Part shown: one piece after another, positions 1,143-16,725 of the stretch
How positions within the stretch are numbered: position 1 is the stretch's first letter
Layout of the letters: every line of letters starts with the position of its first letter
Origin: a virus
Lineage: Duplodnaviria; Heunggongvirae; Uroviricota; Caudoviricetes
Direction: 5' to 3' (one strand)
Length of the DNA stretch: 21,891 nt
Virus record (IMG/VR): IMGVR_UViG_2778261300_000004
Coordinates: 1 to 21,891 of that record
Made by a program: the position numbers and the translations under genes
Notes under the pieces: generated by a model
What the model saw: the letters and a program-made list of their open reading frames with translations, nothing else
Told to the model about the DNA's origin: nothing
Databases searched by the model: none

Positions 1143-1290
1143 CATTCATAGTGCAGGGATTAAAATCATTCCCACTCAATTATTTACGACAATCATAACC
1201 AATTGAGTGATAACATTTTTCCAAAACCAAATTTTTCCCGTACCGTTTTATATACCGTCACCGAAAATCAGTACCATGAAAAATGCCATG

Positions 1291-1773
1291 CTATCTGGTC
1301 AGGGTGTCGTACTGTTTTTCGCAGACTCTTCCGGCTTCGACAGCCCTGTCAGCATACTCTGCCAGTTGTCTGTTTCTCTCGAGAGATTTACTGAGCACGT
1401 CGGCAAGCAAAACTCCGGTGTCTGCGGCTGACGTCCCAGCGCCGACAATGGCGTTATACTGCCTGAGCTGCTCACGGATGGCAACGAGCTGTTGCTGCAA
1501 CCGGCCAGCGCGAGCGGCAGCATCAAGAGCATCATTGCGCGCCTGGTCGATCCTCTGCTGCGCTTCACGTTCATTGATCGCTTTCTCCTGTTCGTAGTGA
1601 TGACGAACTCTCTCATCTTCGGTTTTGCGGTCTTCTTTCGCCTGCGCATACCCGGCGTCGTACTGACGACTGCCGTGTACATTCCAGGCAACAACTCCTG
1701 ATATGACCAGAACAGCAAGCACCGCCATGATAATCAACTGTTTCCGGTATGCTTTTACGAATGCCCAGATCAT
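1291..1773 (-). CDS. Rz: Rz-like i-spanin (inner-membrane spanin subunit)
   Basis: 160 aa with one N-terminal TM helix then a charged coiled coil; start ATG overlaps the endolysin stop (ATGA); position after the endolysin. Confidence 0.7.
1299..1535 (-). CDS. Rz1: Rz1-like o-spanin lipoprotein embedded in the +1 frame of Rz
   Basis: Internal [16 protein letters not shown] with lipobox LAGC, moderately Pro/Ser-rich mature part, entirely inside Rz. Confidence 0.5.
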   Translation of the reverse strand: MMLLMLPLALAGCSNSSLPSVSSSGSITPLSALGRQPQTPEFCLPTCSVNLSRETDNWQSMLTGLSKPEESAKNSTTP

Positions 1774-2399
1774 GCCGCCAGCACCTTACTGGCAGTGACG
1801 TACCGCGTGCGCCGGTCGTCGATGCCATTCCTGCCACCATTGATAATCAAAGTTACACGTGCAATATCGCCGGGATACTTCATGCAGCCTTTGCTGGAGA
1901 AGAACCACGCCGCGCTACGAGCCGCGTATTCGTCTTGCGTCAACAGCTCAGGATTCTCCAGCAGGTCCACTTTCAGGCCGTTTCCGCAGTCACGATAGTT
2001 ATTCAAACCGGTAATCTGGATAAGTCCGCGCCCACGGTAATTCCAACCATCACCGGGAGCATTGTTCCCCATGCGTTTGCTATACACCAGATTTGCGATC
2101 GCGCGCTGTCGCTCAAGTGGCAATGGTGGTTCACCAGCACGGCGTCCCAATGCATTAGCCTGCCCTTGGGTGAGACGCCCAGCACGAACGAAGTTGGCCA
2201 GCCCGGTAACGCTGTAGTTGAAATTCTCCTGCAACCGGGTGAAGCCTCCAGACTCATGCCCGACCATAGCAATAAACATTGCCTGATCTTCGGGGTTGCT
2301 GATACCAAACTCTTTCATCGCAGAAGTTATATGCAAGAACCAGCGTGCGGCCAGCGCCTCGCTGATACCAGCAGCTCGCTGGAATTGTTTAATCTCCAT
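1770..2399 (-). CDS. Endolysin, GH19 (chitinase-like) lysozyme type
   Basis: Starts at internal ATG 2399 ([21 protein letters not shown]...) with GAGG upstream; family assignment from recalled GH19 endolysin features; the track ORF extends upstream only through alternative frames. Confidence 0.7.
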
Positions 2400-2695
2400 G
2401 TTTAGACCTCGATATTTTGAAAATCTGAACAACGTTACCGCGTGTTTTAATAACCGCAGCAAGCATAACAGCGTTGATAATGACCTCAGGTAAATCCACA
2501 GCCATTGGCGTGCATAACCAGATTGCATAGACGACACGAACAGGAATACTGGCCGCAGCAACAATAAGGAAATAAGCAAGCCCCCCCCCATCTTCGGTGT
2601 TGAGAGCCATTACGCCGGAATGTGACAACGCGAATTGCTATTCCCGAACAAATAATCGCATTGGCAATAAGCAAAAAAAGCTCATGAGTTACCAT
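2389..2695 (-). CDS. Holin-like small membrane gene split into two overlapping frames at a G9 tract (frameshifted or slippage-dependent)
   Basis: ORF A (ATG 2695, GGGGAG RBS, one TM) and ORF B (ends 2389, two hydrophobic segments) overlap by 125 nt in frames differing by 1; removing one G at 2581-2589 fuses them into a ~104-aa, 3-TM protein ending 10 nt into the endolysin start. Confidence 0.4.
2581..2589. repeat. Homopolymer tract C9 on + (G9 on the coding minus strand)
   Basis: Read directly; the only long G/C homopolymer in the window, at the junction of the two holin-like frames. Confidence 0.9.
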
Positions 2696-3086
2696 TGTCT
2701 TTTCTCCCCGGAATTAACTCACGTGGATTATCTGAACGATGGTAGAGCCATATACCAATACGTACAGCGACAATCGCCGATACGAATGCTCCTGCAGAAA
2801 AGACGATCCCTTTCTCGAAAGAGTCCTGTGTGATGGTAGGGATCAGGCTGGCTATGCCGATAAGAATCGATGCTGCTGGTTTGTAAAAGAGAAGGCCGCA
2901 AAGAAAGCTGAGAATAGACAGGAGCACCCGGCGGCGGATCGGATACTCGACAGCAGAGGTAACAAAAATCACCGCTCCTGACAAAGCACCGAGCACCACC
3001 TCTGGCGGAACGCCTACGATAACCGCAGCAAGAGAACTCATACTAAGCCACTGATTTAAAGCCCCATCTGTTAGCTGAGCTGACAT
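2682..3086 (-). CDS. Membrane protein with about four predicted TM segments, first gene of the lysis cassette (holin family or lysis accessory)
   Basis: ATG 3086 preceded by GGTGG; 134 aa with four hydrophobic stretches; stop overlaps the start of the next small ORF. Confidence 0.45.
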   Translation of the reverse strand: MSAQLTDGALNQWLSMSSLAAVIVGVPPEVVLGALSGAVIFVTSAVEYPIRRRVLLSILSFLCGLLFYKPAASILIGIASLIPTITQDSFEKGIVFSAGAFVSAIVAVRIGIWLYHRSDNPRELIPGRKDNGNS

Positions 3087-3213
3087 AAAAACCACCGTTT
3101 AATGTGCATAAGACCCTCCTTAGTTGGTGAGTTTATCATACACAATAAACCATATATGGATTAAAGTTAATCAAGCAAAAGACTACCTCCCCAGGAGGTG
3201 GTTTAGGGATAAC

Positions 3214-3242
3214 AATAAAAAGATGGCGCATTGAGCGCCATC
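3214..3242 (-). terminator. Rho-independent terminator after the acyltransferase gene
   Basis: Hairpin gatggcgc / loop / gcgccatc followed on the minus strand by TTTTTA, immediately past the acyltransferase stop; a second weaker hairpin (acctcc/ggaggt) follows. Confidence 0.55.
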
Positions 3243-3245
3243 ATA

Positions 3246-4382
3246 TTAATTATGTTTGTTTGCTGCAATGTTAATAAAATACCTTTCAAAAAAATGGAAG
3301 GTTAAACATGACACAACACAAAGAAATATAAAGACAATAGTTAGCTGAAGATAAAAAATACCACCACTCATAGGAAGGTTGTTTTCTTTCATTACTTTAA
3401 AAGCGACATAAAAAATCACCCCCTGAAGTAGATATATACTGTAACTAGCCTCTCCAAGCCTTATAAATCCCTTGGTTCTAAATAGACCAAATAGATCGGC
3501 ACCTGAGCATACAGCAAAGAAACCTATCGCTGAAACAAATATGAGCTTTGTGCTAAGAGTGCCTGGTGAAAGTATAATAATGCTTAATATTGATGCAACC
3601 AACAAAATTTCTGATTGCAATTTTGTTATTTTCACCAGCAATGTTATTTCTTTCACCAACATACCAAAACAAAAAGCCGCCCATAAGTTTGCTTTGGCAT
3701 CTGGGAAAAATGATGGTACAAAATACATGGATAAAAAAGTAATGGCTGAGATGAACTCTAACGATTTTTCTCTAAATAAGTAAAGCAAAGGAAGAATGAA
3801 ATAAAACCCCCACTCCCACACAAGAGTCCATGTAACTCCAGCAGTTACATATCTTGAGTTAATCATCCCGTTTATATCTGGTCTTATATTCGTAAACCCA
3901 CAGTCAAACCAATACAAATAGTTCTGATACTTCTGAATAAAATCAGATGGAAGCCCTGTATAATACAATATTACAACTATAGCCAAAAGTGATGACAACC
4001 AAGCCATTGGCAAGATTCTAAACAGCCTTCCCTTATACATTGAAATCCAGTCAACACGCTCTGAGTCTCTTATTTTCCCCCAAAATAAAAAAGCAGTAAT
4101 CATGAAGAAAAAATAAACCCCAATATTTCCTATATAGTACATAAATGATGATGTGAACCACCATTTATTATTTATGGTAAAATTCAAAAAAAAGTCCATA
4201 TGGTCAAAGACGACCATTGATGCAAGTATATATCTTACACCTGTTAATTGCATATTTCTATGCAGCTTCACGCCTTTATCCATAAATGAGAATAAAGGCA
4301 TGGAAAATATTAAAGAAACAAATAATATAGAACCAAAAACCCATATTGCTAAATATATGCTATTCTGCATGATTGACACCAT
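3246..4382 (-). CDS. Integral-membrane acyltransferase family 3 (O-antigen acetyltransferase-like) moron
   Basis: 378 aa, roughly ten hydrophobic segments, strongly AT-rich relative to neighbours; acyltransferase-3-like N-terminal motif (LTGVRYILASMVVFDHM) and FFFMITAF; own terminator; immediately after the tailspike. Confidence 0.65.
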   Translation of the reverse strand: MVSIMQNSIYLAIWVFGSILFVSLIFSMPLFSFMDKGVKLHRNMQLTGVRYILASMVVFDHMDFFLNFTINNKWWFTSSFMYYIGNIGVYFFFMITAFLFWGKIRDSERVDWISMYKGRLFRILPMAWLSSLLAIVVILYYTGLPSDFIQKYQNYLYWFDCGFTNIRPDINGMINSRYVTAGVTWTLVWEWGFYFILPLLYLFREKSLEFISAITFLSMYFVPSFFPDAKANLWAAFCFGMLVKEITLLVKITKLQSEILLVASILSIIILSPGTLSTKLIFVSAIGFFAVCSGADLFGLFRTKGFIRLGEASYSIYLLQGVIFYVAFKVMKENNLPMSGGIFYLQLTIVFIFLCVVSCLTFHFFERYFINIAANKHN

Positions 4383-4453
4383 TTTAAATATTTATATTTA
4401 AATTATCACACATAAATAAATATAACAATAGTGCCAATCACATCAGTTATTGA

Positions 4454-6925
4454 TTAAACCACACTTAACCAACTTGAACCATTCGCAACAACTGGGCCAA
4501 CTCCACCAGCAAGACTGGTATTTGTGTTGTAACAGTGACTCCCCCTAACCGCAGTTGCGTTACTAACATCCGCAAAAATACCAAACCCTTTAATCGCCCA
4601 CGTGACCCCTGAAACCGGTGTAGATGGTATAGCTGAGTTTCCATACTGCATATGCCCACTTATATTTACAGAGCCAGTTGTTGTGGTGAAAACTTCACCC
4701 GTTTTACTTGATACGACATTACCGCCGCAAATAACAGAATAGCCACTAACCAGACTTGTTAATTTGTCTGGCCTGTTGAAAAATCCACCGATAAACTCAA
4801 ACGAGGGAGTGGTATTGTCGTAGTTAACACCAGTACTTATAAAGCTATAACCATTAGATTGGGTTAATTTGTCGAAGATAACTTTCTCTACTTTACCACT
4901 AGACTTTCTGATCACCGCCTGCCCGGAAACCAAATCAATATTCCCCGAAACAATAACGGTGTTTATCTGCCCACGGGTGATACGAACTCCGGCTGCGTCC
5001 GACACACTGGTAGCAAGTAAGGTTTTATCGAAATTAACATTAAGATTGTCTATGCGACTATTGTCGGCACCAGCACCATCACCCCCTACCTCCAGAAAAT
5101 ATGCGACATCACGAGGGCACCGACATTCCAGATTGTAGACACGAACTGCTGATGAGCCAGCCGTCCCAGTGGTTACCGACACTACAGGCACAACTGCTGC
5201 CGAGTAGTTAGCCGAGATAACGCCGATTACAGCGTTATCGACGGTAACAGTACCAGTCCCTACTGTTTTAAATTCAATGGTTCTGTAGCCAGCGCCAGCA
5301 ATTCCACCGACATTGTCGATATTCAGTGTTTTCACGTTGGTTTGTGACAGATTTGGTCCATCTGTCCACACCCTGATTACACTATGCTGGTAGCTACCAT
5401 AAACACCATCTATGCTCAGGTGGCGAACAGGTGTTGTGCTGTTTCCTGCAACCTTTACTGCACATAAAGAATTAATGCCATAAATGCCCTTAACGTCGAT
5501 GTGATTAAACGTTCCGCGCAACCCTAAATCGTAAGCAAGGTAATCCCCTCCGGTCATTGCAAACATGTCATCGCCAGTCGTACCGTACAGATCCCTTACG
5601 TAGGCATAATCAATAGGTGGCTGTAGATGAAGTCCATCAGAGTTGTTATTAAAACGAAGCCCTTGAGCATCAAGATATTGAACGTTGGCTACAAGGTAAG
5701 AATATTTTCTTGCACCTTTAATTTCCAGTCCACCACCTAATTTAACCCGCACTGCTGATGCAATGCAGATGCAATGCATTTCCATCCCATTCGAGGTGCC
5801 TCCCGTAGAATAGTTGTAGTCAACGGTCCCACCTCCCCATATCCCAATATAATCTGAGCGGTTACCAAGATCGGATGTGTTAGAAGCAAAACCTCCCGAG
5901 ACTGTCCTGTTTGACAGAACATATTCCCATTTCTCACTTACAAATACCGGCCTCAGATTGCCAGACGCGCCTGAAACCGTAACGCCGGATTTAATTTCGA
6001 TGTCGGTGTTATTAGGGACTATGATTGGCCCATTGACAAAAATAGTACCCTGATCTGCAAACACAATTCTCGTAATCGTGGACTTACCAGACAGATCGTT
6101 CAGCATGTTCTGCAAATTTGTAGAGTTAACGGTGGCACTATTTGTTGGTAAGACACCATAATCACTTACATAATAAATCCTATCTAATTTGTCTTTTACT
6201 GTCTGTAAAATCGCAAATGGTCCCTTATTTTTATATCCTGTTATTTTTGCACCATTGTTTGCTAACTCAATTAGAACATCTGAAGCCGAGCCTGATTCTG
6301 GCAAAACGGCAATTGGTCTCCCTACATCATTAAAAGCAAGAATTTTATTCGCTCTCTCTTCATTTGATGGTATCTGATCAACATAACTTTCAGGAACTCT
6401 TAGCGTCCTTTTGAAAAGGTTGTCGACATAATAGGCGACACTGTCAACATAATTTTTTGTTGCCGCATCCTGTGGATCTCGTGGGTCTCTAAGATTACGG
6501 ATATAGTTGTTTAGCGCGTCGTACCAGTTCGCGATGCTTGATGGCTTACGCAGCGCAAGGCTAAACAAACTGCGAACCTGCTGAATCAACATCGTTAGCT
6601 TATCAAACGCATCCTCATGCACCTCAGCAAAAAACTTACCCTGATTGCGCAGATCAGTTTCCTGTGTAACCGGTAGCTCTCGTGATATAGAAATCCGATA
6701 ACCGTTAGCCAACGCCTTCGACAGAATTACATTACCGCCGTTGTACCCTCCCGCACCAGTGACTGCGTAATCAGTATCAAGAGCCAGCACAGCGATATTT
6801 TCATCAAGGTCAACCACCTGTACTACCAGATCAGATTCCTGGAAAATCCTAAAGGTATAAGGGAATGAAGTCGTAACACCGTTACCTGTGTATTCGTTGT
6901 GGTCAACTTCTGTTGATACCGTCAT
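4454..6925 (-). CDS. Tailspike / receptor-binding protein, likely beta-helix glycanase
   Basis: ATG 6925 with GGAG RBS (track start is an upstream TTG); N-terminal ~150 aa (MTVSTEVDHNEYTGNGVTTSFPYTF...QETDLRNQGKFFAEVHEDAFDKL) matches the conserved tail fibre/tailspike N-domain as recalled; G/S/T/N/V-rich remainder. Confidence 0.7.
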   Translation of the reverse strand: MTVSTEVDHNEYTGNGVTTSFPYTFRIFQESDLVVQVVDLDENIAVLALDTDYAVTGAGGYNGGNVILSKALANGYRISISRELPVTQETDLRNQGKFFAEVHEDAFDKLTMLIQQVRSLFSLALRKPSSIANWYDALNNYIRNLRDPRDPQDAATKNYVDSVAYYVDNLFKRTLRVPESYVDQIPSNEERANKILAFNDVGRPIAVLPESGSASDVLIELANNGAKITGYKNKGPFAILQTVKDKLDRIYYVSDYGVLPTNSATVNSTNLQNMLNDLSGKSTITRIVFADQGTIFVNGPIIVPNNTDIEIKSGVTVSGASGNLRPVFVSEKWEYVLSNRTVSGGFASNTSDLGNRSDYIGIWGGGTVDYNYSTGGTSNGMEMHCICIASAVRVKLGGGLEIKGARKYSYLVANVQYLDAQGLRFNNNSDGLHLQPPIDYAYVRDLYGTTGDDMFAMTGGDYLAYDLGLRGTFNHIDVKGIYGINSLCAVKVAGNSTTPVRHLSIDGVYGSYQHSVIRVWTDGPNLSQTNVKTLNIDNVGGIAGAGYRTIEFKTVGTGTVTVDNAVIGVISANYSAAVVPVVSVTTGTAGSSAVRVYNLECRCPRDVAYFLEVGGDGAGADNSRIDNLNVNFDKTLLATSVSDAAGVRITRGQINTVIVSGNIDLVSGQAVIRKSSGKVEKVIFDKLTQSNGYSFISTGVNYDNTTPSFEFIGGFFNRPDKLTSLVSGYSVICGGNVVSSKTGEVFTTTTGSVNISGHMQYGNSAIPSTPVSGVTWAIKGFGIFADVSNATAVRGSHCYNTNTSLAGGVGPVVANGSSWLSVV

Positions 6926-7028
6926 GTTCAATCTCCGGATAGTCGCAGCACCCGTTGCGCCGCATACCCGGTTATTTTATTACCTTAAAAACCACATATG
7001 GATAGATAACCCATAAATACGAACAGAT

Positions 7029-7045
7029 ATCACCTTTCAGGTGAT
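7029..7045. promoter_or_regulatory. 17-bp inverted repeat A-TCACC-N5-GGTGA-T, a variant of the operator-like motif
   Basis: atcacctttcaggtgat in the divergent tailspike / SOS-gene intergenic region; same architecture as the TTACC-N5-GGTAA sites. Confidence 0.35.
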
Positions 7046-7081
7046 TTGCAAAACGTGCTGGATAGCAAATAAATTATTTGA

Positions 7082-7101
7082 TACTGTATATTCATACAGT
7101 T
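7082..7101. promoter_or_regulatory. LexA (SOS) box
   Basis: TACTGTATATTCATACAGTT matches the CTGT-N8-ACAG consensus with both arms intact (about 17/20 to TACTGTATATATATACAGTA); 20 bp upstream of ATG 7121. Confidence 0.65.
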
Positions 7102-7120
7102 ATTGCATGGAGAAGATAAG

Positions 7121-7378
7121 ATGCAGCAGTATCACTATCCACTGGAAAACGGATTTACCGAAAAGATTCACACGCCGGGAGGCGTCAGATCACTGGTGGA
7201 GGGATCGCACTTGATGAAATTACTCCGGGATCTCGATAAAGATGGATTTAATGTCGATGGTCCACTTGCCGAACTGACTGCACTGATTAACTACGTCACC
7301 AGCTCACAGATGTCTATGCAGGATCTGCAAACACATCTCGACTATTGTGCCGAACAATTACGAAAACAAACCCGGTAA
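7121..7378 (+). CDS. Small SOS-regulated protein of unknown function (candidate antirepressor or SOS-induced accessory factor)
   Basis: ATG 7121 with GGAGAAG RBS (track start is an upstream TTG at 7103); 85 aa, acidic and soluble; LexA box at its promoter; a hairpin follows. Confidence 0.5.
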   Translation: MQQYHYPLENGFTEKIHTPGGVRSLVEGSHLMKLLRDLDKDGFNVDGPLAELTALINYVTSSQMSMQDLQTHLDYCAEQLRKQTR

Positions 7379-7385
7379 ATTTAAA

Positions 7386-7401
7386 GGCCGCAAGAGCGGC
7401 C
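7386..7401. terminator. Hairpin between convergent genes (terminator-like)
   Basis: ggccgc / aaga / gcggcc; T-rich tract on the minus strand side, weaker on +. Confidence 0.4.
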
Positions 7402-7402
7402 T

Positions 7403-7414
7403 GTGACATGTCAC
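7403..7414. repeat. 12-bp perfect palindrome GTGACATGTCAC, copy 1 of 2
   Basis: Read directly; an identical copy lies at 13756-13767. Confidence 0.8.
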
Positions 7415-7421
7415 GCTCACG

Positions 7422-7562
7422 TTATGACAAGCCTATGTACCCTGCTACACCAGATAATATCAAAACAACTGCAACAGCAAATTCGCCATCGTGAATGATA
7501 CATTTACGGTTCATAACGCCAAGTGCAACAAGCGCAAACACAACAAGAATAAAAGCAATCAT
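7422..7562 (-). CDS. 46-aa hydrophobic membrane peptide (below the ORF-track cutoff)
   Basis: ATG 7562 with AGGATGAG RBS 10 nt after the 750-aa gene stop; MIAFILVVFALVALGVMNRKCIIHDGEFAVAVVLILSGVAGYIGLS gives two hydrophobic segments; stop at 7422-7424. Confidence 0.4.
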   Translation of the reverse strand: MIAFILVVFALVALGVMNRKCIIHDGEFAVAVVLILSGVAGYIGLS

Positions 7563-7571
7563 TTCTCATCC

Positions 7572-9824
7572 TTATTGCGGAGTGACATCCTGTGGTCGCC
7601 ACCAGTATGTCTGGTTAAACTCTTTCTTCGAACGTTGCTCCATTTTACGCAAATAACCTGGTGAAAAATACTCCTGCATCTGGTTAAAGATCATGTGATC
7701 GAGAGCCGCCTTTAAGTACCAGAGATTCGCACCTGGCATCAGACCTTTCCCCAGCTTAACCAGATCACCACCAGTCTGCTCATTCTTCCCTTCCACAGCA
7801 TTTAACGGTATGCCCTGAGCAATCTTCACTACGTCATCAACCAGACCAGCTACCGGGCCAAGCATCGACGCCAGCGCGCCGCTTCCGTACCTGGTGTGAT
7901 CTGACAATAAAAAGTCACCGTAAAGGCCAAGACCACCACCTTTCAGTAGAGCACCAAGCCAGAATTTTGCGGCATCTTCTCCTGTCATCTCTCGAGGATT
8001 ACGACCAGACGCAAGGTCGTTAAGTTGCTGCGACAAAGCGCCAAGAATGGTCGTACTGGCAATAAACGTCGCAATATATGCCGCACGCCCACCAGCAGAC
8101 GGCATACCCATAGCGCGTGACCAGTGACGCATAACCACCGAGATAGGGAACGATTTAAACAGGAAAACACTTCTCGTTAATTCACCTTTCCATGTTCCAC
8201 GCTGAATACCAGAACCGGTTATCAGTTGCTCACGTGCTCCCGGTGTAATAACAGCCATATCAACTTCTTCAGTTACGGCACCGAGCAGTTTACGCATTGC
8301 CTCAAATTTCACGCGTTCAGGCTCACCAAGATGTTTAACTGCTGAATCAGGGATACGCATAATGCTTTCCGGTGTCAGCATCGTATTATTGCCGTTCCCC
8401 CAGTCCTCCTGTTGCGCCAGACTCCATACGCTCCAGTCTGTGTCAGTAATCCCTTTGCTTTTCAGGATACGATAATCAGAATCATCGAGGCTATGAAGGT
8501 CTGGTGTCCGTGACACTACTTCTCCCAGGCTTCCCATCATGGTTACGCCATAGGCGCGCTTGTGCGCATCTGACCATGCTGTAAGCCCACTGGCACGCAT
8601 TACCGCCGTTGCAGCCCAACGAGACACAGACGGCCCCATATTATCCATCGCCCAGCGGTTAACGCTGCCAAGTAGAGATTCCATCGCCAGACCAGCGCGG
8701 CGCGCCCGCGCAAGCTCAGTACGGTTCGTTGGGTCCATAGCTTCAAGCTGGTTGCGGAATAACTGGTTCATTGGAAGGTTGGTCACCTTCGCAGACAGAT
8801 ACATGGTTCCAAGATCAGAGAACGATGACAGCAACGCGGATCCGAGTCTGCTGGCAACCAGCCAGTTGCGGATATTGTCAGACCATCGCGCGATGTGCGG
8901 ATTCGCTACAGGCTGTGTCTTTCCGGAAATAAAGTTGTACAGATTCTCTGTGTTGTTCGCCAGCCGCTCGACTTTACCGGTTTTACTCGGGTTAGCTGTT
9001 GCCGTTTCTGCCTTAACCTGATCAAGAAGGGAGCGGAAAACATGATCGGGGTTTGGACCATATGTTTCCACCAGAGCAATATCTTTACTGATACCTTCCA
9101 GGTGACCGACCATGATTTCCCATAGAGAGCGATCGCCATAAAGTTGTTGATATTGGAGATAGGAATCTGCATCTTTGAAATGTATCTGTCGTGATGCATT
9201 ACCACGGTTAGCACGTGCGCCGGAAATTCGCATTCCGGTATCAGTAAGCTTATTCAGCCCACCAGTAGCGATCGTGTTATAAGCCTCTCCAAGAAATGCA
9301 GACAACTCGGCATCGTTCATCAGTTGTCCATCGGCTCGGGTATAATATTTGCGATCCAGCTTACCTATAACATCGCTAACCCACTTATCCTTTGATACCG
9401 CCCCAACCTTTTCCATAGAATGATGTTGAGGGATCCCCCAGTTTTCGAGATAGCCAATGTCCCCACCAGCATCATTAAACCGGCGGCGCAGCAGCTCTGT
9501 AACTTCTCTCCACGCCTTAGCACCTTTTCTTGCTTTAGCATTGCCAGTATTTTGCCCCCGCATTTCATATACCAGGTCACGTACGCCCGCTTCATCTTCA
9601 AACAGACCAAAAAAGCGAGGATCAACTGCTTCGAATGCCTCCTGCAATTGACTCAATGCATAATCACGGGTGGCTTTTGTTCTGGATTCAACAGAGAGGA
9701 AATTAGATTTACCGTCTGCATTAAAAGCTATAGTACGGTTAAGAGCGCCAAGTTTCCCATCAGCCCCTTGATAGCTATTGATAAATTTATCCAATCTCTG
9801 ACGCGCGGCTATAGTGAGAGCCAC
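7572..9824 (-). CDS. Large virion protein, probably a DNA-ejection/injection (internal) protein of a podovirus-like particle
   Basis: 750 aa, GTG start; soluble N-terminal part and a C-terminal region with hydrophobic and Gly-rich segments; sits upstream of the tailspike where P22-like phages carry ejection proteins. Not portal-like by eye. Assignment is positional. Confidence 0.4.
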   Translation of the reverse strand: MALTIAARQRLDKFINSYQGADGKLGALNRTIAFNADGKSNFLSVESRTKATRDYALSQLQEAFEAVDPRFFGLFEDEAGVRDLVYEMRGQNTGNAKARKGAKAWREVTELLRRRFNDAGGDIGYLENWGIPQHHSMEKVGAVSKDKWVSDVIGKLDRKYYTRADGQLMNDAELSAFLGEAYNTIATGGLNKLTDTGMRISGARANRGNASRQIHFKDADSYLQYQQLYGDRSLWEIMVGHLEGISKDIALVETYGPNPDHVFRSLLDQVKAETATANPSKTGKVERLANNTENLYNFISGKTQPVANPHIARWSDNIRNWLVASRLGSALLSSFSDLGTMYLSAKVTNLPMNQLFRNQLEAMDPTNRTELARARRAGLAMESLLGSVNRWAMDNMGPSVSRWAATAVMRASGLTAWSDAHKRAYGVTMMGSLGEVVSRTPDLHSLDDSDYRILKSKGITDTDWSVWSLAQQEDWGNGNNTMLTPESIMRIPDSAVKHLGEPERVKFEAMRKLLGAVTEEVDMAVITPGAREQLITGSGIQRGTWKGELTRSVFLFKSFPISVVMRHWSRAMGMPSAGGRAAYIATFIASTTILGALSQQLNDLASGRNPREMTGEDAAKFWLGALLKGGGLGLYGDFLLSDHTRYGSGALASMLGPVAGLVDDVVKIAQGIPLNAVEGKNEQTGGDLVKLGKGLMPGANLWYLKAALDHMIFNQMQEYFSPGYLRKMEQRSKKEFNQTYWWRPQDVTPQ

Positions 9825-9835
9825 ACGACGTTTCT

Positions 9836-10090
9836 TTAATGCCGCTTCACCATGTCAGAAAACTCAAGGCGGAGATCAGCATCTTTAGGCATCGGAATAC
9901 CTTTCGCGTCATCAGTACCTTTACGAGCCGCCGCGCCAGCAAGAATTGTCTGCGCAGCGGTTTCAGGAGACACGGAAACATCCGGATTAAACCAGTTTTT
10001 TTCTGCCAAAATACCACCTGGCTTATCCATCAGTATCCCGGCAACGGCAGCAGATGGAGCGTTGGCACTGATCTGCTGTAGTGCTGACAT
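9836..10090 (-). CDS. Short ORF, probably the C-terminal remnant of a truncated upstream virion gene
   Basis: 84 aa from ATG 10090; stop 12 nt before the 750-aa gene start; nothing phage-structural lies upstream of it, only the tRNA island. Confidence 0.3.
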   Translation of the reverse strand: MSALQQISANAPSAAVAGILMDKPGGILAEKNWFNPDVSVSPETAAQTILAGAAARKGTDDAKGIPMPKDADLRLEFSDMVKRH

Positions 10091-10343
10091 ATACACCTGC
10101 CCACCACCAGTGCTCTGCCTGATGGTAGCGGTCTGGATACGTTTAAGGGGCACCCTCCCTTGCTCGGGCAAACGAACCAGGTAGCCGGAATGTGCAAGTC
10201 GAGCGGTTTTATTCCGCGCACGGGGATTCACCATCCCGGCGATTCGGTGTGACACCTCGGAAGAGACGAGGGTGCAACGATGAGAGCATTTATGGAGCCG
10301 CGACAAAGTGTGGTGCCTTAACAGGCTAAGTGCTCTCAGCGTT

Positions 10344-10420
10344 GTGGCATTAGCTCAGTTGGACAGAGCAACCGCCTTCTAAGCGGTTGGTCGCAGGTTC
10401 GAATCCTGCATGCCACGCCA
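10344..10420 (+). tRNA. tRNA-Arg, anticodon UCU (reads AGA/AGG)
   Basis: Cloverleaf folded by hand: 7-bp acceptor stem GTGGCAT/ATGCCAC, D-arm GCTC..GAGC, anticodon stem ACCGC/GCGGT with loop CTTCTAA, T-arm GCAGG TTCGAAT CCTGC, discriminator G and encoded CCA. Confidence 0.9.
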
Positions 10421-10463
10421 GAATCACGCCTAAGGACCGTGATGCCAGAAGTTCCAGGTGCTT

Positions 10464-10506
10464 GGCGGTGATGGTTTCCCTTGAAGGACTACCACCGCCC
10501 TTTTTA
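10464..10506 (+). terminator. Hairpin plus T-run after the tRNA (terminator-like)
   Basis: ggcggtg ... caccgcc arms followed by CTTTTTACA. Confidence 0.35.
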
Positions 10507-10583
10507 CAGCAGGACGCCATTGCGATGACTTCATGCTGTAAACCCGTACAGCCACGGAAGGCATAACTCATTGCTTCCAGTTC

Positions 10584-10608
10584 GCCCACTTCAGTGGGCT
10601 TTTTTTTC
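10584..10608 (+). terminator. Rho-independent terminator
   Basis: gcccac / ttca / gtgggc followed by T8. Confidence 0.7.
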
Positions 10609-10620
10609 TAGTGACTACTG

Positions 10621-10637
10621 ATTACCTTATGGGTAAT
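10621..10637. promoter_or_regulatory. Operator-like inverted repeat A-TTACC-N5-GGTAA-T in the promoter region of the AT-rich gene
   Basis: attaccttatgggtaat, perfect arms; overlaps a candidate -10 TAATAT (10634-10639) about 30 bp upstream of ATG 10669. Confidence 0.5.
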
Positions 10638-10668
10638 ATGCTGCAAACAAATAACACAAGGCCGTGAC

Positions 10669-11487
10669 ATGCTTGACTTCATCCGTGACATTTACTCCTC
10701 TTTCCGCCAAGCATCTCTTGAGCGGGTGAAAAGCCCGTTCCTTGGGGCATTTGTTTTTTCCTGGCTTTGCTTTAATTGGCAGATGTTAGCAATTCTATTT
10801 TTTAGTTCTAAGGATATTGAAAAGCGCCTTGCTATTATTAATGGCTCTTTCGGCATCGTCAGCTTTTTAATTGCGCCAATATGCACTACAGCATTGATAG
10901 TTATCCTTTTACCGCAAATTAATAAATTAATTACAATAATACAAGATAAACCTAACTCAGACACAATTGAAATGAGCCTTGCATCTAAAATAAAGATCGC
11001 CGAACTGCAGCAACTATTAGCAGAAAATGAAGCAAGAAAGAAACTTGCTGATAAAAAAGAAGAACGCTTCATTGAAGAGAATATTATTTCAATAAAAAAA
11101 GACCATGAAAAAGCAATAGATAACCTTAAAGACAAAGAAAGTAAAATCTCAAATCTCACGGACACAATAACTGAACTTCAGAGCAAACTGGTTAAAGCTG
11201 AGGCCACTCTCAAAGTTGAACAGGAGTCAAGATCCCAAGTGCAGAATGAATTGATTATTGAAAAAGAGAACAAGCGGAAATTAGAAGACAACATTCTGCA
11301 CCTTAATTTAAGTTTAAAAAAAAACCAATCAGAATTGGCCATTGCAAAAGAAGCCTATGATAATACCTTGATGGCTTATAATGAACTTAACACAACATTA
11401 AAAAAAGCAGAAAGCTCAATAATAAACTTCAACGCTAACTTTCCTTTTTTAACTGACATAAATAACAGCACCCCAAATACATACTAA
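10669..11487 (+). CDS. AT-rich moron: protein with two N-terminal TM helices and a long coiled coil (candidate exclusion, abortive-infection or host-takeover factor)
   Basis: 272 aa; two N-terminal hydrophobic segments then a K/E/L/N-rich heptad-like region; composition much more AT-rich than flanking phage genes; opposite strand to neighbours; own promoter-like and terminator-like signals. Confidence 0.55.
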   Translation: MLDFIRDIYSSFRQASLERVKSPFLGAFVFSWLCFNWQMLAILFFSSKDIEKRLAIINGSFGIVSFLIAPICTTALIVILLPQINKLITIIQDKPNSDTIEMSLASKIKIAELQQLLAENEARKKLADKKEERFIEENIISIKKDHEKAIDNLKDKESKISNLTDTITELQSKLVKAEATLKVEQESRSQVQNELIIEKENKRKLEDNILHLNLSLKKNQSELAIAKEAYDNTLMAYNELNTTLKKAESSIINFNANFPFLTDINNSTPNTY

Positions 11488-11582
11488 AAAAAAAATAAAA
11501 ATGCATGGGAGCATTTAGTTAGTTTAAATTTAAGTCTAAAGGAGAAAATACAAAAATAAATAACCAATCCACTATGGCATAT

Positions 11583-13052
11583 TTACTCATACGGGTCATA
11601 ATCTATTATAGCCTTACCCTGCTGCTGGCGCGGATCATTAAGTTTTTTTGTGACCGGAAAAGCAAACGTCAGCAGTAGCGCATCGCCTTTACCCGGCGAA
11701 CGCCCAAGCCGCTCCTTGATATCTTCCTTCGGTTCGATAACGATTTTACCGTCCACGCGAACTTTGTACTCTGCCGCCGACAGGTCGTCCGCTGTTTCCT
11801 GGTCATCCAGCATGCCGCCCAGCCTCAGCCATGTCTTGCATGAGTTGAACATCTCCCCACGCTTGTTAAGCATCTGCGGGTCAGTGGACGCACCGCCGAA
11901 CGGAACAAGTTGCCATGTACGTCCCCAGCCATCACCGATTGACTTCAGACCAGTTCCGTAACCGAAGTCGATGAACACTGCGTCAGCCTGGTACTGGTCT
12001 TCAAAGTCAGCGATATGCTTCGCCATAATCAGATCGTCAGTGGTCTTGTTGCCAGTCCACAGCACCTTACTGTGCAGCCCCTGCCGCAGGTATATCACAG
12101 CGTCATCAACGCCGGAGTATGCCGGGTCAACGCCGATTATCACCGGTGCATGTGCCACCTGCGCAGCAGTTACCACCCGTTTCATTGCCTCGTCAGTAAG
12201 ACCGGTAGGGATAAACTGCAATTCAGATGCATCAGGGAATATGCCGCGCACACGGATTTTAACGAAGTCGCTGTCTTCCCCGTAGTCATCAACCCATTTC
12301 TGCAATTGCTGCTTGTTAGTACCTTCCACCGTCCGGCTGTCAATCTGCGCAGTTTTCCAGCGGTGTTTATATTTGCGGAAACATTCACGGAAACGTCCGG
12401 TATTACGCGTCGGGTTTCCGAACGCCACCCAGATAATCTCAGTGTCTTCGTCCGTAAGCGCACCCTCAGCAACTTCCCACACCAGATCCGCAATGTTCGA
12501 CGCTTCATCGAATACCACGATGATGCGTTTGCGCTCGTTGTGTAGTCCGGCGAATGCCTCAGTGTTGTGCTCAGACCAGGGGATTGCGTCAGCTCGCCAC
12601 CGCTTGTCGTGCCCAGGATCATTGCTGTACATCGCAGTAGCGGTACAGGTAAACCAGTCTTTCGTGATAGCAAGGTTCGACCACTTGATAATTTCCGGCC
12701 AGGTCTTCGTTCGTAGCTGGTTGTCGGTGTTGGCGGTCACCACGACCTTACAATCCTCGCAAGTGGACATGCCCCAGTTGATCAGCATTGAGATGAGTGC
12801 TGATTTACCAATACCGTGACCCGAAGCACGTGCCAGCATAAGCGGCTGATAGCGCGTCTCGGGATTCTGCAGGTGATCACGTATCTCTCGGAACGCATCG
12901 GCCTGCCACTGACGTGGGCCGGAAGCATGTGCCAGTTCAGTCCCCTCTTCCCCCCACGGGAACGCATAGAGGGCATAGCCAAGCGGATCGTGAGTGAACC
13001 CTGCAATATCCTCGATCAACTGCTCTTCAGGAGATAACGCTGCATCTGTCAC
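11583..13052 (-). CDS. terL: Terminase large subunit
   Basis: 489 aa; Walker A-like SGHGIGKS; GTG start overlaps the terS stop (GTGA). Confidence 0.8.
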   Translation of the reverse strand: MTDAALSPEEQLIEDIAGFTHDPLGYALYAFPWGEEGTELAHASGPRQWQADAFREIRDHLQNPETRYQPLMLARASGHGIGKSALISMLINWGMSTCEDCKVVVTANTDNQLRTKTWPEIIKWSNLAITKDWFTCTATAMYSNDPGHDKRWRADAIPWSEHNTEAFAGLHNERKRIIVVFDEASNIADLVWEVAEGALTDEDTEIIWVAFGNPTRNTGRFRECFRKYKHRWKTAQIDSRTVEGTNKQQLQKWVDDYGEDSDFVKIRVRGIFPDASELQFIPTGLTDEAMKRVVTAAQVAHAPVIIGVDPAYSGVDDAVIYLRQGLHSKVLWTGNKTTDDLIMAKHIADFEDQYQADAVFIDFGYGTGLKSIGDGWGRTWQLVPFGGASTDPQMLNKRGEMFNSCKTWLRLGGMLDDQETADDLSAAEYKVRVDGKIVIEPKEDIKERLGRSPGKGDALLLTFAFPVTKKLNDPRQQQGKAIIDYDPYE

Positions 13053-13645
13053 TGATTGCCATCCTGACGTTCTTTCAGTCTCTTCCTGGCTGCTGCTATG
13101 CGATCAGCAATTGTCACATTCACATTAACATCCATGCGTTCTTTGAACGCGTTGACGTCGACGTGCTTACCAATCAGTTCGAGGTTCTTCACCTTGTCAG
13201 GCCATTTAATTTTTTTGAGGATTGTCTCTATCGAATCCTCGTTCATGTTCATGATGGTCGATGACAGATCAAAGCCGCTAAGCGTAGTGCGCCAGATTTT
13301 CGGCCACTCGCGGATTGGCTTAAGGCTCCCATCGTCGTTGAGGATATCAATCACGTCCATCTGGTCGATCTCCACCAGGCGCATGAGAACGTAATCGGCA
13401 CTGACGCGCATTCGTTTGTTGCGCTCCTCCATCAACTCGGCAATCCGTTTTTGAATGCGTTCATCGCGCATCATGACACTGGCTTTAACTGCCGCTGTAT
13501 TTGGGGAGAATCCTGCGTTAATCGCTGCCTGAGTCTGGTTTTCAGGCGTTTTGATGTATGACTGGCAATAAGCCTCCTGCATTGCTGTTAGTGGCTTAAA
13601 TTGCGTTGATTTGCGTTTATAGGTTTTAGGTTCAGCAGACATCAT
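13049..13645 (-). CDS. terS: Terminase small subunit
   Basis: Most likely start is the ATG-ATG at 13645 (MMSAEPKTYKRK...); the track ORF begins at an upstream TTG (13723); basic helical protein directly before and coupled to terL. Confidence 0.65.
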   Translation of the reverse strand: MMSAEPKTYKRKSTQFKPLTAMQEAYCQSYIKTPENQTQAAINAGFSPNTAAVKASVMMRDERIQKRIAELMEERNKRMRVSADYVLMRLVEIDQMDVIDILNDDGSLKPIREWPKIWRTTLSGFDLSSTIMNMNEDSIETILKKIKWPDKVKNLELIGKHVDVNAFKERMDVNVNVTIADRIAAARKRLKERQDGNQ

Positions 13646-13755
13646 AACCACCGTGGTAATAGTTACCGTTGTGGTAATAGTACCATGCAAAATAAAGCCG
13701 CCATAGTTGGCGGCAGTATTCAAAACCCGTCAAATTCATCATGCATAATCTACTC

Positions 13756-13767
13756 GTGACATGTCAC
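13756..13767. repeat. 12-bp perfect palindrome GTGACATGTCAC, copy 2 of 2
   Basis: Read directly; overlaps the stop codon of the 13764-14111 gene, just upstream of terS. Confidence 0.8.
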
Positions 13768-14111
13768 ACTATTAATTTCGTTTCATGCCAGCCTTTAGTC
13801 ACCCAGCATTGCGAGTCACCATTACACGGGCATGAATTAACTGGAACTCTCTCGCCGCACTTACCGCAACGTTTTCTGCTGATCGATTTTATACGCCCGC
13901 GCACACGTGCATCATCCTGGCGGATCAGCAGCGCGATGTACTCGGCCATTTCATAGGGATCGCGACCAGGGCGCCGGGCGGCGCAGTTCCGCGCTAGCAT
14001 TTCCTGCTCCTGCTTATCCAGCACCAGTTCAATTTTGCGCTCACCGGCGGCGGACTGCCGAGCGCGCTGCGCGGCTTTGCGTTCTGCGGGGGATTTAGCC
14101 ACGAATCGCAC
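13764..14111 (-). CDS. Small basic protein with Cys-rich C-terminus (possible zinc-binding regulator)
   Basis: Track ORF with GTG start; a second GTG with GGAG RBS three codons in; C-terminal CGKCG...CPCNGDSQC cysteine cluster. Confidence 0.4.
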   Translation of the reverse strand: MRFVAKSPAERKAAQRARQSAAGERKIELVLDKQEQEMLARNCAARRPGRDPYEMAEYIALLIRQDDARVRGRIKSISRKRCGKCGERVPVNSCPCNGDSQCWVTKGWHETKLIV

Positions 14112-14216
14112 TCCACGCCAGATTGATTAATGACTCCCAGGTAATATAAACCCGGATACCAGCAGCCAGGCCGAAACCAATCACCATGGCATAAAGCAGA
14201 GCGTTGCACTTGTTCA

Positions 14217-14762
14217 TCACTTCACCTCCTGCGGCGGCTCCGGTAGCGGCATCCAGTGTGACGGCTCACATACCCCCTCAACACCATTCATGTAAAAGAA
14301 TTGAAATAACCCTTTACCTTTGTGAAACCCTACCATCTGCTCTTTTGTGTCTGAGCAATAAACCAAAACATCTTCTTCGCTTGGCATTCGCTCACTACAG
14401 CTTATCCAACCATCCGGAGTTACCGGAGAGTTGCTATTTACATCGAAGTTTGGCTCTGCGTCCTGAACCAGGAGGATGTAACCATTCTTGGCTGTATCAA
14501 GTTCTAACGCCTCGGTGACGGTGCCGAAATAGCGATTACCTAAATCAGCATCACAAGTGCTTACATCAATGGAAACTTCCATGCCTTCGATTAATTCTGG
14601 CAAGTTGTAAGTTTGGTTTACAGGCTCTGCTTCCAGCGATGCCAGAGCAATTCGTGCCAGTTCTTCCGCTTCTTCTGCTGGCAGTACAACGTTGCTACCA
14701 GGTCCGTATGTTTCGCGCCACTGCTTGATTGTCAGCAGTCGCTCTTTGGTAATAGTGGTCAT
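14217..14762 (-). CDS. Phage accessory protein, DUF551-like C-terminus
   Basis: Start taken at ATG 14762 (MTTITKERLL...) with strong GGAG RBS; C-terminal ...CEPSHWMPLPEPP resembles the DUF551 family as recalled. Confidence 0.5.
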   Translation of the reverse strand: MTTITKERLLTIKQWRETYGPGSNVVLPAEEAEELARIALASLEAEPVNQTYNLPELIEGMEVSIDVSTCDADLGNRYFGTVTEALELDTAKNGYILLVQDAEPNFDVNSNSPVTPDGWISCSERMPSEEDVLVYCSDTKEQMVGFHKGKGLFQFFYMNGVEGVCEPSHWMPLPEPPQEVK

Positions 14763-14763
14763 A

Positions 14764-15276
14764 TCACTCTCCTTTGATGCGAATGCCAGTAGCGCGGATT
14801 GCATCGATGACTTCAGAAACTTTGTATGCCATTACCGTTTGGTAATCATCGTGAAAATCTGTTCGATGAAGCATGCTGCTACGTTCCGGGAGCAGTATTT
14901 CCCGCGCTTCCAGTTCTGCAATGCGCTTACCTCCATCCGCGATTACTCCATCGTAATACTCACGCTGCTCGTTGAGTTTTGATTTTGCTGCTTCAAGCTC
15001 AACACGCAGTTTCCCTACCGTTAGCGCAATTTCCTCGTTCTCCTGGTCGCGGCGTTTGATGTATTGCTGGTTTCTTTCCCGTTCATCCAGCAGCGCCAGC
15101 ACGGTTTCTGGTCCGGTCAGAAATTTGAAGGCGTTGAGCGCATCAATATCCACACCGTAATCTTTAAGTTCCTGTTCACTTAACAAATCATCATCAACTG
15201 GCAACATTAACAGGCGTTCCATTGCTGGAGTTGCACGTTCTGCCGCCTCACGCAGTACCTGATAGTCAATTGTCAT
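14764..15276 (-). CDS. Acidic coiled-coil protein (Ea22-like?)
   Basis: ATG 15276 with GGGTGG RBS; stop and next start nearly abut. Confidence 0.45.
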   Translation of the reverse strand: MTIDYQVLREAAERATPAMERLLMLPVDDDLLSEQELKDYGVDIDALNAFKFLTGPETVLALLDERERNQQYIKRRDQENEEIALTVGKLRVELEAAKSKLNEQREYYDGVIADGGKRIAELEAREILLPERSSMLHRTDFHDDYQTVMAYKVSEVIDAIRATGIRIKGE

Positions 15277-15917
15277 TCTCGCCACCCTTCACAGTTGTAA
15301 TCACTACAGCCTTCAAAATCATATGGGCTGTACTGCCAGGTTATTTTTCCGCAATGCGGACAATTCCAACGCACCTTCCCGCTTCGCGACTTCTTTCTTC
15401 TGTTCTGCTCTTTCAACCAGTCAGGCATGACCAAACCTGCGCCCTGAACCATTGTTCTGCGGTTAAATTTATTGATATTGAACGTCCGGCGCTTTGCTGA
15501 ATCAGCAATGGAAAATGGCAACCAAACTATTCCTGGTTCGTTTTTGTTGGCGACGCTAAAGATGGTCGCTTTACTGAAGTCATCTGTTGGCAATCCACCG
15601 TGTTGAAGCCAGTAAACATCGTTGCCGTTCCAGCTACCTTTTTTGTAGGCCACATACGCAGTGCAATCTGGCTCAATCAGGTTTTCTGTAGGGATGTACT
15701 GGCAATCAACGTGCCACACAGCCATTGCATCCACGCTATCAGCGCAAACAGGCTGATCGATATCTCGACCACAATTCCAGGCTTTTTGGGCTTCTTCCAG
15801 CGTGTAAACATGAGCGCGATCGATATTAGAACTGTAACCATTGCCGTTATGGCAATGGAATGAAGCGTTATTACCCACAGTTTCACGCAAGCACATCATG
15901 TAAAAGCGGTTATTCAC
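15273..15917 (-). CDS. Hypothetical phage protein with C-terminal Cys cluster
   Basis: GTG start overlapping the upstream stop (GTGA); C-terminal CPHCG...C...C motif. Confidence 0.45.
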   Translation of the reverse strand: MNNRFYMMCLRETVGNNASFHCHNGNGYSSNIDRAHVYTLEEAQKAWNCGRDIDQPVCADSVDAMAVWHVDCQYIPTENLIEPDCTAYVAYKKGSWNGNDVYWLQHGGLPTDDFSKATIFSVANKNEPGIVWLPFSIADSAKRRTFNINKFNRRTMVQGAGLVMPDWLKEQNRRKKSRSGKVRWNCPHCGKITWQYSPYDFEGCSDYNCEGWRE

Positions 15918-16477
15918 TGGATGACTCCTTTACGAAGCTGTTCAGCGATATCTTCGAGAACGCCATCAGAGAATGAGCGGTCAAAATCTCCTTCCGGCAC
16001 ATTAGCCATAAAATCAGTAGAGGTAAGAATCATCCGGGCAATATCCTCGGCGTTCTTCGCAGTATCATCAATAAAACCAGCTTTCCAGGCAGCCAACATT
16101 CTGTTCGCCACAAAGTAAGCCCCTTCCTTGCGTGCTTCAGTCTTCATTTCATCCAAGAAAGCATCGGTCGCAGGAGTGGTTTTTTGTGGTGATATGGCGA
16201 TACGAATTGTTTCAAGAGCTGGATCTGTTTCCACTGTTGGCACCTTGATAAAACCAAGCTGCACGCCATTCATAATGAACGTGCGGCGATCCTCACATAT
16301 CGCCTTCAGTCTCGCATTCTCCGCAGCCAGCACCGAAAACTTCTCGTGTGCCAACTTAACAGCCGCATCAGCCTGCTTAATTGACTCAATCGCTTTCTGC
16401 TGGTCTTCGGCCAGCGCATTAGCACGCTCCAGTTGCACTTCCAGTTGCGTTGCCAAATCGCTGATTCCATGGTGCAC
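15914..16477 (-). CDS. Hypothetical protein with N-terminal coiled coil; true start uncertain
   Basis: Track ORF from GTG 16477; N-terminal region overlaps a second frame that carries a small zinc-ribbon-like ORF. Confidence 0.4.
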   Translation of the reverse strand: MHHGISDLATQLEVQLERANALAEDQQKAIESIKQADAAVKLAHEKFSVLAAENARLKAICEDRRTFIMNGVQLGFIKVPTVETDPALETIRIAISPQKTTPATDAFLDEMKTEARKEGAYFVANRMLAAWKAGFIDDTAKNAEDIARMILTSTDFMANVPEGDFDRSFSDGVLEDIAEQLRKGVIQ

Positions 16478-16596
16478 TCAACACAGTGTCCGTTGTAAAC
16501 CCAGCGTTCACTGTCATGTCCGTGCTTACATGGTTTTCCGGTGTAGTAGCGTTTAAGTCCGCGCTTTGCGGCATCAATACGTGTAATGATTTCCAT
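16471..16596 (-). CDS. Small zinc-ribbon-like ORF; 3' end unresolved
   Basis: ATG 16596 (MEIITRIDAAKRGLKRYYTGKPCKHGHDSERWVYNGHCVEC); its frame has no stop until 16306 and becomes Arg/Trp-rich where it overlaps the coiled-coil frame. Confidence 0.25.
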
Positions 16597-16705
16597 GGTA
16601 AGTACTGTTATTAGTATTGGGATTACGGTTATTTTGTGCTGACACAAAAAAAAGATCAACCAGATTTGGTTTTTTATTACCTTTGAGGTGCGAATAGATA
16701 TGAAA

Positions 16706-16725
16706 AGACCGCCGGATGGCGGTCT
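16706..16725 (-). terminator. Hairpin terminator about 20 nt after the Cro-like gene
   Basis: agaccgcc / ggat / ggcggtct followed on the minus strand by TTTTCATATCT. Confidence 0.4.

Follow-up and report, generated by a model that had tools for sequence, protein, structure and literature searches.

Organization of the lysis cassette

The window, by which we mean the whole 21,891-nt stretch of DNA analysed here, opens with E. coli chromosome, namely yfgH (1-516) and yfgI (532-1071), at least 98.8% identical to E. coli genomes. Beside yfgI lies a prophage related to phiV10, epsilon15, SPN1S and TL-2011b (genus Uetakevirus), in which we delineated a lysis cassette with the following features:

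1291..1773, minus strand: Rz-like i-spanin (DUF2514), 160 aa, by profile match
1299-1574, minus strand: Rz1 o-spanin embedded in the Rz gene, 91 aa, lipobox LALAGC, from the phiV10 annotation
1770..2399, minus strand: GH19 endolysin (PF00182), 209 aa, intact
2389..2695, minus strand: frameshifted small holin gene of the PF05449 family (Phage_holin_3_7 / DUF754), 307 nt versus 309
2389..2628, minus strand: ORF B of the ORF list, 79 aa, TTG start
2486..2695, minus strand: ORF A of the ORF list, 69 aa, ATG start
2581..2589, minus strand: G9 homopolymer, standing where homologues have the 11-nt GGGGNGGNTGG (Trp-Gly-Gly-Trp), a net change of -2 nt
2682..3086, minus strand: PF16931 (Phage_holin_8) membrane protein, 134 aa, intact, with 3-4 hydrophobic segments, assigned by Pfam

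The genes of the cassette are interleaved at their ends. The stop of the PF16931 gene overlaps the small holin start by 14 nt, and the small holin stop (TAA, 2391-2389) falls inside the endolysin start region (ATG at 2399), an 11-nt overlap that recurs in homologues; that the stop of the fused gene overlaps the endolysin start had already been pointed out in a sequence-only reading of this locus. These start/stop overlaps match those of phiV10, TL-2011b, SPN1S and E. coli 214-4, in which the small gene is an intact 309 nt encoding 102 aa. The small holin gene is paired with the PF16931 gene in all 37 phage records that contain the latter. The endolysin, found as an identical protein in 170 indexed blocks of the protein collection, has a ribosome-binding candidate, GAGG, that precedes the ATG by 7 nt and belongs to this gene alone. 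A hydropathy scan revealed no N-terminal hydrophobic segment in it, so that its activity probably depends on a holin.

Which of the two membrane proteins supplies that holin bears on whether the frameshift would abolish lysis. In the Burkholderia P2-like phages KS5, KS14 and KL3, the DUF754 protein is the predicted holin and the upstream 3-4 TM protein a putative antiholin (Lynch et al. 2010, PMC3091744). These phages, together with the P2 Y/LysA paradigm, share with our cassette the order 3-4 TM protein, DUF754 protein with three TM segments, endolysin and Rz/Rz1. Their assignment, predicted on the strength of gene order and topology, amounts to the same proposal as that of the sequence-only reading, which suggested that the upstream gene may be a lysis regulator; in the enterobacterial pair, by contrast, PGAP and PHROGs label both membrane proteins 'holin'. 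The PF16931 protein could thus be either a holin or an antiholin-like partner. NCBIfam offers no family assignment for the two membrane proteins or the endolysin, a literature search returned no experiments on the SPN1S, phiV10 or epsilon15 holins (PF05449 and PF16931 families), and holin activity of the PF05449 family itself is a prediction.

A single holin gene split at a G9 run

The G9 run occupies 2589-2581 on the minus strand (C9 on the plus strand) in the context t-GGGGGGGGG-c, with the minus strand reading ...CACCGAAGAT GGGGGGGGG CTTGCTTATTTCC... across it, and is the sole run of G or C longer than 6 nt in the 21.9-kb window. ORF A and ORF B lie in frames one base apart, share about 140 nt and both cross the run, just as the sequence-only reading had described. 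Only parts of each correspond to authentic coding sequence. In ORF A, residues 1-38 are authentic (TM1 and a 12-residue loop) and are followed by 31 out-of-frame, Cys-rich residues and a TGA; in ORF B, the authentic part is confined to 2389-2580, which encodes TM2, TM3 and the charged C-terminal tail. Inspection of the sequence upstream of the ORF B TTG (2628) and of an internal ATG (2610) revealed no Shine-Dalgarno-like sequence, and we accordingly rejected independent translation of ORF B as unlikely.

Removal of one G from the run yields a 101-aa protein that matches PF05449 in Pfam with 85.5 bits (E 2.6e-24; profile positions 2-80 of 80), against a gathering threshold of 25.4 bits, and also matches PHROG 217 (phrog_217), 'holin', with an E-value of 1.4e-30. 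These matches of the repaired protein identify ORF A and ORF B as halves of one gene rather than a chance pair. A crude Kyte-Doolittle scan, used in place of a dedicated topology predictor, places hydrophobic segments of the repaired protein at about 5-25, 38-60 and 65-84, followed by a charged 19-residue C-terminal tail; the frameshift site falls in the basic/charged 12-residue loop between the first and second segments. The proposal that a single holin-like gene with three TM segments lies just upstream of the endolysin and is interrupted at the G run thus agrees with the family match, the hydropathy and the gene position alike. The same proposal held that a G8 or G11 tract would fuse the two ORFs into about 104 aa. 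The fusion is correct, the length is not (101 aa with G8, 102 aa with an 11-nt tract), and the natural in-frame tract of 11 nt is the interrupted GGGGNGGNTGG and not G11. In the window, the tract is 2 nt short and the frame is lost after codon 38. Judged by its reading frame, the window copy is a pseudogene of the PF05449 family and no functional member as written.

Exact searches of a collection of 15 billion proteins recovered neither ORF A (69 aa), nor ORF B (79 aa or 73 aa), nor the hypothetical G11 product. Since gene callers leave such fragments unreported, protein searches are unable to survey frameshift alleles, and near-identical loci were therefore gathered through exact matches to neighbouring proteins: the PF16931 protein, the endolysin, the truncated gp20 and the tailspike. 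We also considered a conserved overlapping gene in the third frame, which in the window continues without a stop past the G run and into the endolysin, and rejected it because that frame contains stops in homologues.

The tract across homologues

Across the family, the tract is 11 nt long, TGG GGN GGN TGG, and encodes Trp-Gly-Gly-Trp in the loop between TM1 and TM2. Alignment with phiV10, TL-2011b, SPN1S and E. coli 214-4 places the 2-nt shortfall of the window within TGG GGA/T GGG TGG. A pattern scan of IMG/VR found an 11-nt tract in 18 of 18 contigs, as GGGGAGGGTGG, GGGGTGGGTGG, GGGGTGGATGG, GGGGGGGATGG, GGGGGGGCTGG or GGGGGGGGTGG, and the six metagenome contigs all carry an interrupted tract of 11 nt. 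The region is present in 384 of 5,426 complete E. coli genomes, none of them more than 95% identical to the window; among the matches listed (about 90 of the 384), every one has 2 nt more than the window in the alignment and carries a single gene annotated 'phage holin family protein'.

With the reference, IMG/VR, metagenome, E. coli and phage surveys all showing an intact gene, one fused gene is the rule. The comparison with homologous prophages that the sequence-only reading had proposed as a check accordingly turned up only the fused form, and two separate conserved small genes were not found in it. Nor is the repeat maintained as such: every other homologue examined breaks up the tract (GGGGNGGNTGG), with G8TGG as a minority synonymous variant. 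The homopolymer appears from these alignments as no feature of the family, but as something that arises when both glycine codons are GGG. The loop itself is of constant length in all aligned full-length homologues, down to 40% identity, and the Trp that is removed in a G8 form of the gene (see below) is conserved in the homologue alignment down to 66% identity. Given the shortened loop and the missing conserved Trp, that form may be incompletely functional.

Near-identical loci and the mutational path

The tract takes the following forms among the near-identical loci:

G7CTGG, 11 nt: in frame; seven loci
G8TGG, 11 nt: in frame; L010, L017 and L048
G7TGG, 10 nt: frameshift; L018
G9, 9 nt: frameshift; the window, L050 (GCA_002518655.1), L007 (GCA_040555345.1), L006, L045 and L049 (SRR29736265), L009 (SRR3977093), L046 and L051 (SRR5024473)
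G8, 8 nt: in frame, 101 aa, one Trp lost; L008 (GCA_003783165.1)

A further in-frame variant, RRWGWLAY (of G5TGG type, with three Gs fewer), occurs in two Logan contigs. In a list of differences against the window, the G9 and G8 loci form one clone, separated by 0-2 SNPs in 9-17 kb. Six of its approximately seven members carry G9 and one (L008) carries G8, which corresponds to one length change within the clone, too few events to tell a switch from sporadic slippage. The derived base 3902A is common to L008 and most G9 loci, and L046, itself a G9 locus, still has the ancestral C there. Parsimony on this one informative site makes G9 the probable ancestral form in the clone and G8 a later, frame-restoring slip of -1.

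The sister locus L018 shares the host flank of the clone and differs from the window by four SNPs and, in the tract, by exactly one T; the G8TGG loci show more SNPs against the window and a different host flank. The most parsimonious order of events would therefore be G8TGG to G7TGG to G9 to G8 (11, 10, 9 and 8 nt), that is, three single-base losses, although an independent 2-nt loss from G8TGG to G9 would be equally possible. Under either path, the run behaves as a mutation hotspot. Over the 8.7 kb of prophage at 1163-9848 of the window, the tract is the only indel relative to the intact sister L048. Hotspot behaviour of the run is in keeping with earlier work, in which mononucleotide runs of E. 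coli are indel hotspots and even 8-bp G:C runs are genomic outliers (PMC8510543).

All four SNPs between the window and L018 are nonsynonymous, comprising A31V in the PF16931 protein, G161C and L87I in the acyltransferase, and G788S in the tailspike. A31V and G788S are clone-wide, and the other two arose within the clone: L046 lacks G161C, and L87I occurs only in the window and L050. This pattern fits relaxed constraint, with the caveat that four is a small number. The 10-nt allele has a further consequence, since a G10 or G7TGG tract puts TM1 of the holin in frame with the whole endolysin; the resulting 308-aa fusion ORF is present in L018.

The prophage is defective

Comparison with phiV10 by BLAST shows that the prophage of the window is a remnant, aligning in three segments and with one gene truncated:

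7384-9848: matches phiV10 19523-17059
9845-10130: matches phiV10 14636-14351
10126-10607: matches phiV10 3147-2666
7572..9824, minus strand: truncated virion structural protein (phiV10 gp20 homologue), 750 aa versus 824, matching phrog_684 from 76 to 831 of 840
9845..10130: 286-bp relic of the gp18 'head protein', with junctions at 9845-9848 and 10126-10130 that overlap by 4-5 nt each

The equivalents of phiV10 3147-14351 (about 11.2 kb) and 14636-17059 (about 2.4 kb), about 13.6 kb in all, are deleted. The first deletion took out the genes for the head-tail adaptor/portal, the protease, the major head protein, tail proteins and internal virion proteins, along with most of gp18. The second runs through the end of gp18 and gp19 into gp20, which has lost its first 66 codons. 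Alignment to TL-2011b leads to the same conclusion. The intact sister L048, for its part, keeps the 824-aa form of gp20 and the virion genes upstream. Having lost genes that are essential for virions in its intact relatives, the element is a defective (cryptic) prophage, in which the O-antigen acyltransferase, a conversion gene, is retained intact.

The same deleted architecture is found in L045 (19.8 kb, three SNPs, no gaps) and L050 (16.9 kb, no differences), which indicates that the remnant has been inherited within the clone. The G7TGG sister L018, whose prophage is seen in part, keeps the 824-aa gp20, so the holin frameshift may predate the deletions.

Decay, switching or rescue of the holin frame

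We put the probability at about 80% that the G9 tract arose by slippage and inactivates the gene, in a prophage remnant that is decaying and is passed on vertically in one E. coli clone. This was one of the alternatives raised by the sequence-only reading, and the loss of the portal, protease, capsid, tail and internal-protein genes makes it the best supported of them. Under this scenario, synonymous third-position changes would have turned TGG GGN GGN TGG into an 8-G run (G8TGG), in which replication slippage or small deletions would have produced the frameshifted forms, G9 (net -2 nt) becoming fixed in the clone. Translation from the ATG at 2695 would then yield TM1 and the loop as far as RRWGG, continue through 31 wrong residues and end at a stop at 2488-2486, 86 nt short of the endolysin ATG. 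The product would lack TM2, TM3 and the charged tail, holin function would presumably be lost with them, and the stop/start coupling to the endolysin would disappear. As the prophage is unable to build virions, selection for repair is not expected, and loss of the lysis function might even have been favoured. The run would stay unusually mutable, and the one isolate that slipped to G8, regaining the frame minus one Trp, would represent mutational noise at a hotspot. Two observations stand against this account. Tract length has changed at least twice among very close relatives, G9 to G8 included, as it would at a contingency locus, and the PF16931 protein, the endolysin and Rz/Rz1 are all intact, so that the cassette could still be in use. 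Should the PF16931 protein be the actual holin, the cassette may have kept its lytic capacity; whether G9 abolishes lysis or leaves it in place depends on which membrane protein is the holin.

That the true tract is G8 or 11 nt and the gene intact, the G9 being a sequencing or assembly artefact, is scarcely credible. Homopolymers are error-prone on some platforms and one clone member (L008) does read G8, but the same G9 recurs in two NCBI assemblies (GCA_002518655.1 and GCA_040555345.1) and in three SRA runs assembled independently by Logan (SRR29736265, SRR3977093 and SRR5024473). This reproduction across independent assemblies disposes of the assembly error that the sequence-only reading had entertained. 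Moreover, the 101-aa G8 protein is recorded for one contig only, as against nine contigs for the PF16931 protein of the clone, and other indels among these assemblies are absent over 16.9-19.8 kb. A real G9 tract could instead be one state of a slipped-strand contingency locus, with G8 as ON and G9 as OFF, such that only a subpopulation lyses when the remnant is induced. The tract does lie within a gene and sets its frame by length, its length is polymorphic among near-identical loci (G9 in most, G8 in L008, G7TGG in L018), G8 gives back a full-length PF05449 protein and the remainder of the lysis cassette is intact. To this extent the switch suggested by the sequence-only reading draws on a real property of the locus; what the comparison does not bear out is a selected switch, given that the uninterrupted run is confined to one clone, is interrupted in every other homologue examined and differs in one of approximately seven sampled clone members. 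One tract event against about 4-5 SNP events in about 20 kb corresponds to a tract rate some 4,000 times the per-base rate, or about 1e-6 per generation at the per-base rate of about 2e-10 per generation given by E. coli mutation-accumulation work, an order-of-magnitude figure from a single event. Long runs in repair-proficient cells typically show such a rate, which lies far below that of classic contingency loci, and E. coli is as a rule proficient in mismatch repair. A prophage that makes no virions would also draw no obvious benefit from maintaining a switch, and our literature search on homopolymer or phase-variable holins returned nothing relevant. We therefore regard phase-variable lysis as quite unlikely.

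Partial expression of the G9 allele is also improbable. Slippage of RNA polymerase on C9 could generate G8 transcripts; alternatively, tRNA-Gly could slip by +1 on the ribosome, from G6-G8 to G7-G9, and so restore the frame, both routes giving a low level of the 101-aa G8 protein. Re-pairing from GGG to GGG would be perfect, with CTT then following in the correct frame, and a shift anywhere in the frame overlap of about 140 nt would lead to a near-full-length product. E. coli is known to show transcriptional slippage on long homopolymers, chiefly A/T runs; G/C runs, however, are regarded as poorer substrates for it. The out-of-frame arrangement is conserved in no homologue, the A site offers neither a rare nor a stop codon (GCT follows) and the surroundings contain no obvious stimulator. 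Holins act above a concentration threshold, moreover, so that a few percent of product may well do nothing. A programmed frameshift or transcriptional-slippage gene of the prfB, dnaX or IS transposase type was rejected, because homologues are in frame and only the clone and L018 are not. The most elaborate possibility, and a very unlikely one, is a three-state switch in a domesticated remnant, in which G8 or an 11-nt tract turns the holin ON, G9 turns it OFF, and G10 or G7TGG produces the fusion of TM1 to the endolysin. If true, this would provide a membrane-tethered endolysin and would imply heterogeneous autolysis or content release in a clone that kept its lysis and O-antigen-modification genes while discarding those for virions.

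Relation to known systems

The closest relatives of the small holin gene are those of Uetakevirus (phiV10 p28, epsilon15, SPN1S_0027 and TL-2011b gp51), which likewise lie between the genes for a PF16931 protein and a GH19 endolysin and overlap their neighbours at stop and start codons. Once repaired, the window protein shares 82-84% amino-acid identity with them, together with the three hydrophobic segments and a full-length HMM match. It is set apart from them by its 307 nt instead of 309, by the loss of frame after codon 38 and by a Trp-Gly-Gly-Trp tract collapsed to G9.

Phase-variable genes governed by poly-G/C tracts are known from Neisseria, Haemophilus, Campylobacter and Bordetella (PMC1891110, PMC5084427). 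As at such SSR contingency loci, the length of an intragenic homopolymer decides the frame in the window and lengths vary among close relatives. Unlike them, the window tract is recent, clone-specific and unconserved, its estimated switching rate is low, and it sits in a mismatch-repair-proficient E. coli host within a defective prophage that has no evident benefit from switching. If the tract were a switch after all, it would add a rare E. coli example of phase-variable lysis, a reading that the evidence disfavours.

A further comparison is with the frameshifted or decayed lysis genes of E. coli cryptic prophages, in which, as here, virion genes are deleted, a conversion gene is kept and a point indel strikes a potentially lethal gene. 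The locus adds one more example to a familiar type of event, and we propose that its two small ORFs be annotated neither as two genes nor as a regulatory device, but jointly as a single PF05449 holin pseudogene, frameshifted and lying in a defective Uetakevirus remnant. It departs from the usual course of cryptic-prophage decay in that the other lysis genes of the remnant are still intact, and it would illustrate that a lethal prophage function can be lost early in domestication. It departs from that course also in that public assemblies allow the path to be followed nearly one base at a time (11, 10, 9 and 8 nt), and this stepwise history at one 11-nt site suggests how an indel hotspot can arise from a codon change that is itself neutral.

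Deletion junctions and accessory genes

Two deletions have shaped this prophage remnant, and the flanking alignments overlap by 4–5 nt at each junction. The features of this region are as follows.

9845–9848 and 10126–10130: the two deletion junctions
10344–10420, plus strand: tRNA-Arg gene, anticodon TCT
10669–11487, plus strand: 272-aa ORF, G+C 0.35 against 0.47 for the window

Together, the deletions removed about 13.6 kb carrying the portal, capsid, tail and internal-protein genes, and the junctions enclose a 286-bp relic of gp18, the 'head protein' gene of phiV10. Identical junctions are present in other members of the E. coli clone that carries the remnant. The tRNA-Arg gene is part of the prophage, with the deletion junction on one side of it and the terminase region on the other. 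The 272-aa ORF is oriented opposite to the terminase genes and flanked by A9 (11316–11324) and A10 (11486–11495) runs. Its product combines a hydrophobic N-terminal region with a long coiled-coil-like part, and its sole matches are PHROGs without known function (phrog_13369). A moron or other accessory function is the probable role of this gene.

Retained genes and their divergence

Two genes of the remnant are still intact.

3246–4382, minus strand: O-antigen acyltransferase (PF01757), G+C 0.33
4454–6931, minus strand: tailspike, 823/825 aa

Retention of the acyltransferase, a conversion gene, may explain the persistence of the remnant. Still smaller remnants occupy the same yfgI site in other E. 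coli assemblies (related loci L011, L014, L015 and L019), where a repressor-like HTH gene or integrase/methylase genes now adjoin the tailspike, acyltransferase and lysis genes, and where the lysis cassette is intact (tract G7CTGG). The lysis/oac/tailspike end is the repeatedly surviving part of this prophage.

The window differs from the sister-lineage locus L018 by four SNPs (2995, 3902, 4124 and 4564), all nonsynonymous: A31V in the PF16931 membrane protein, G161C and L87I in the acyltransferase, and G788S in the tailspike. The two acyltransferase changes are both of within-clone origin. Either relaxed constraint or selection acting on genes for surface modification could account for this pattern.

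An open frame from the holin into the endolysin

The alleles of this group have no stop in the third reading frame between the G run and the endolysin (1770–2591, minus strand), so that a 10-nt tract joins the first transmembrane segment (TM1) of the holin to the whole endolysin through a hydrophobic, out-of-frame linker. The resulting 308-aa fusion ORF is present in L018 (5704–6630; tract G7TGG). Since stop codons interrupt the same frame in homologues, its openness here is probably due to chance.
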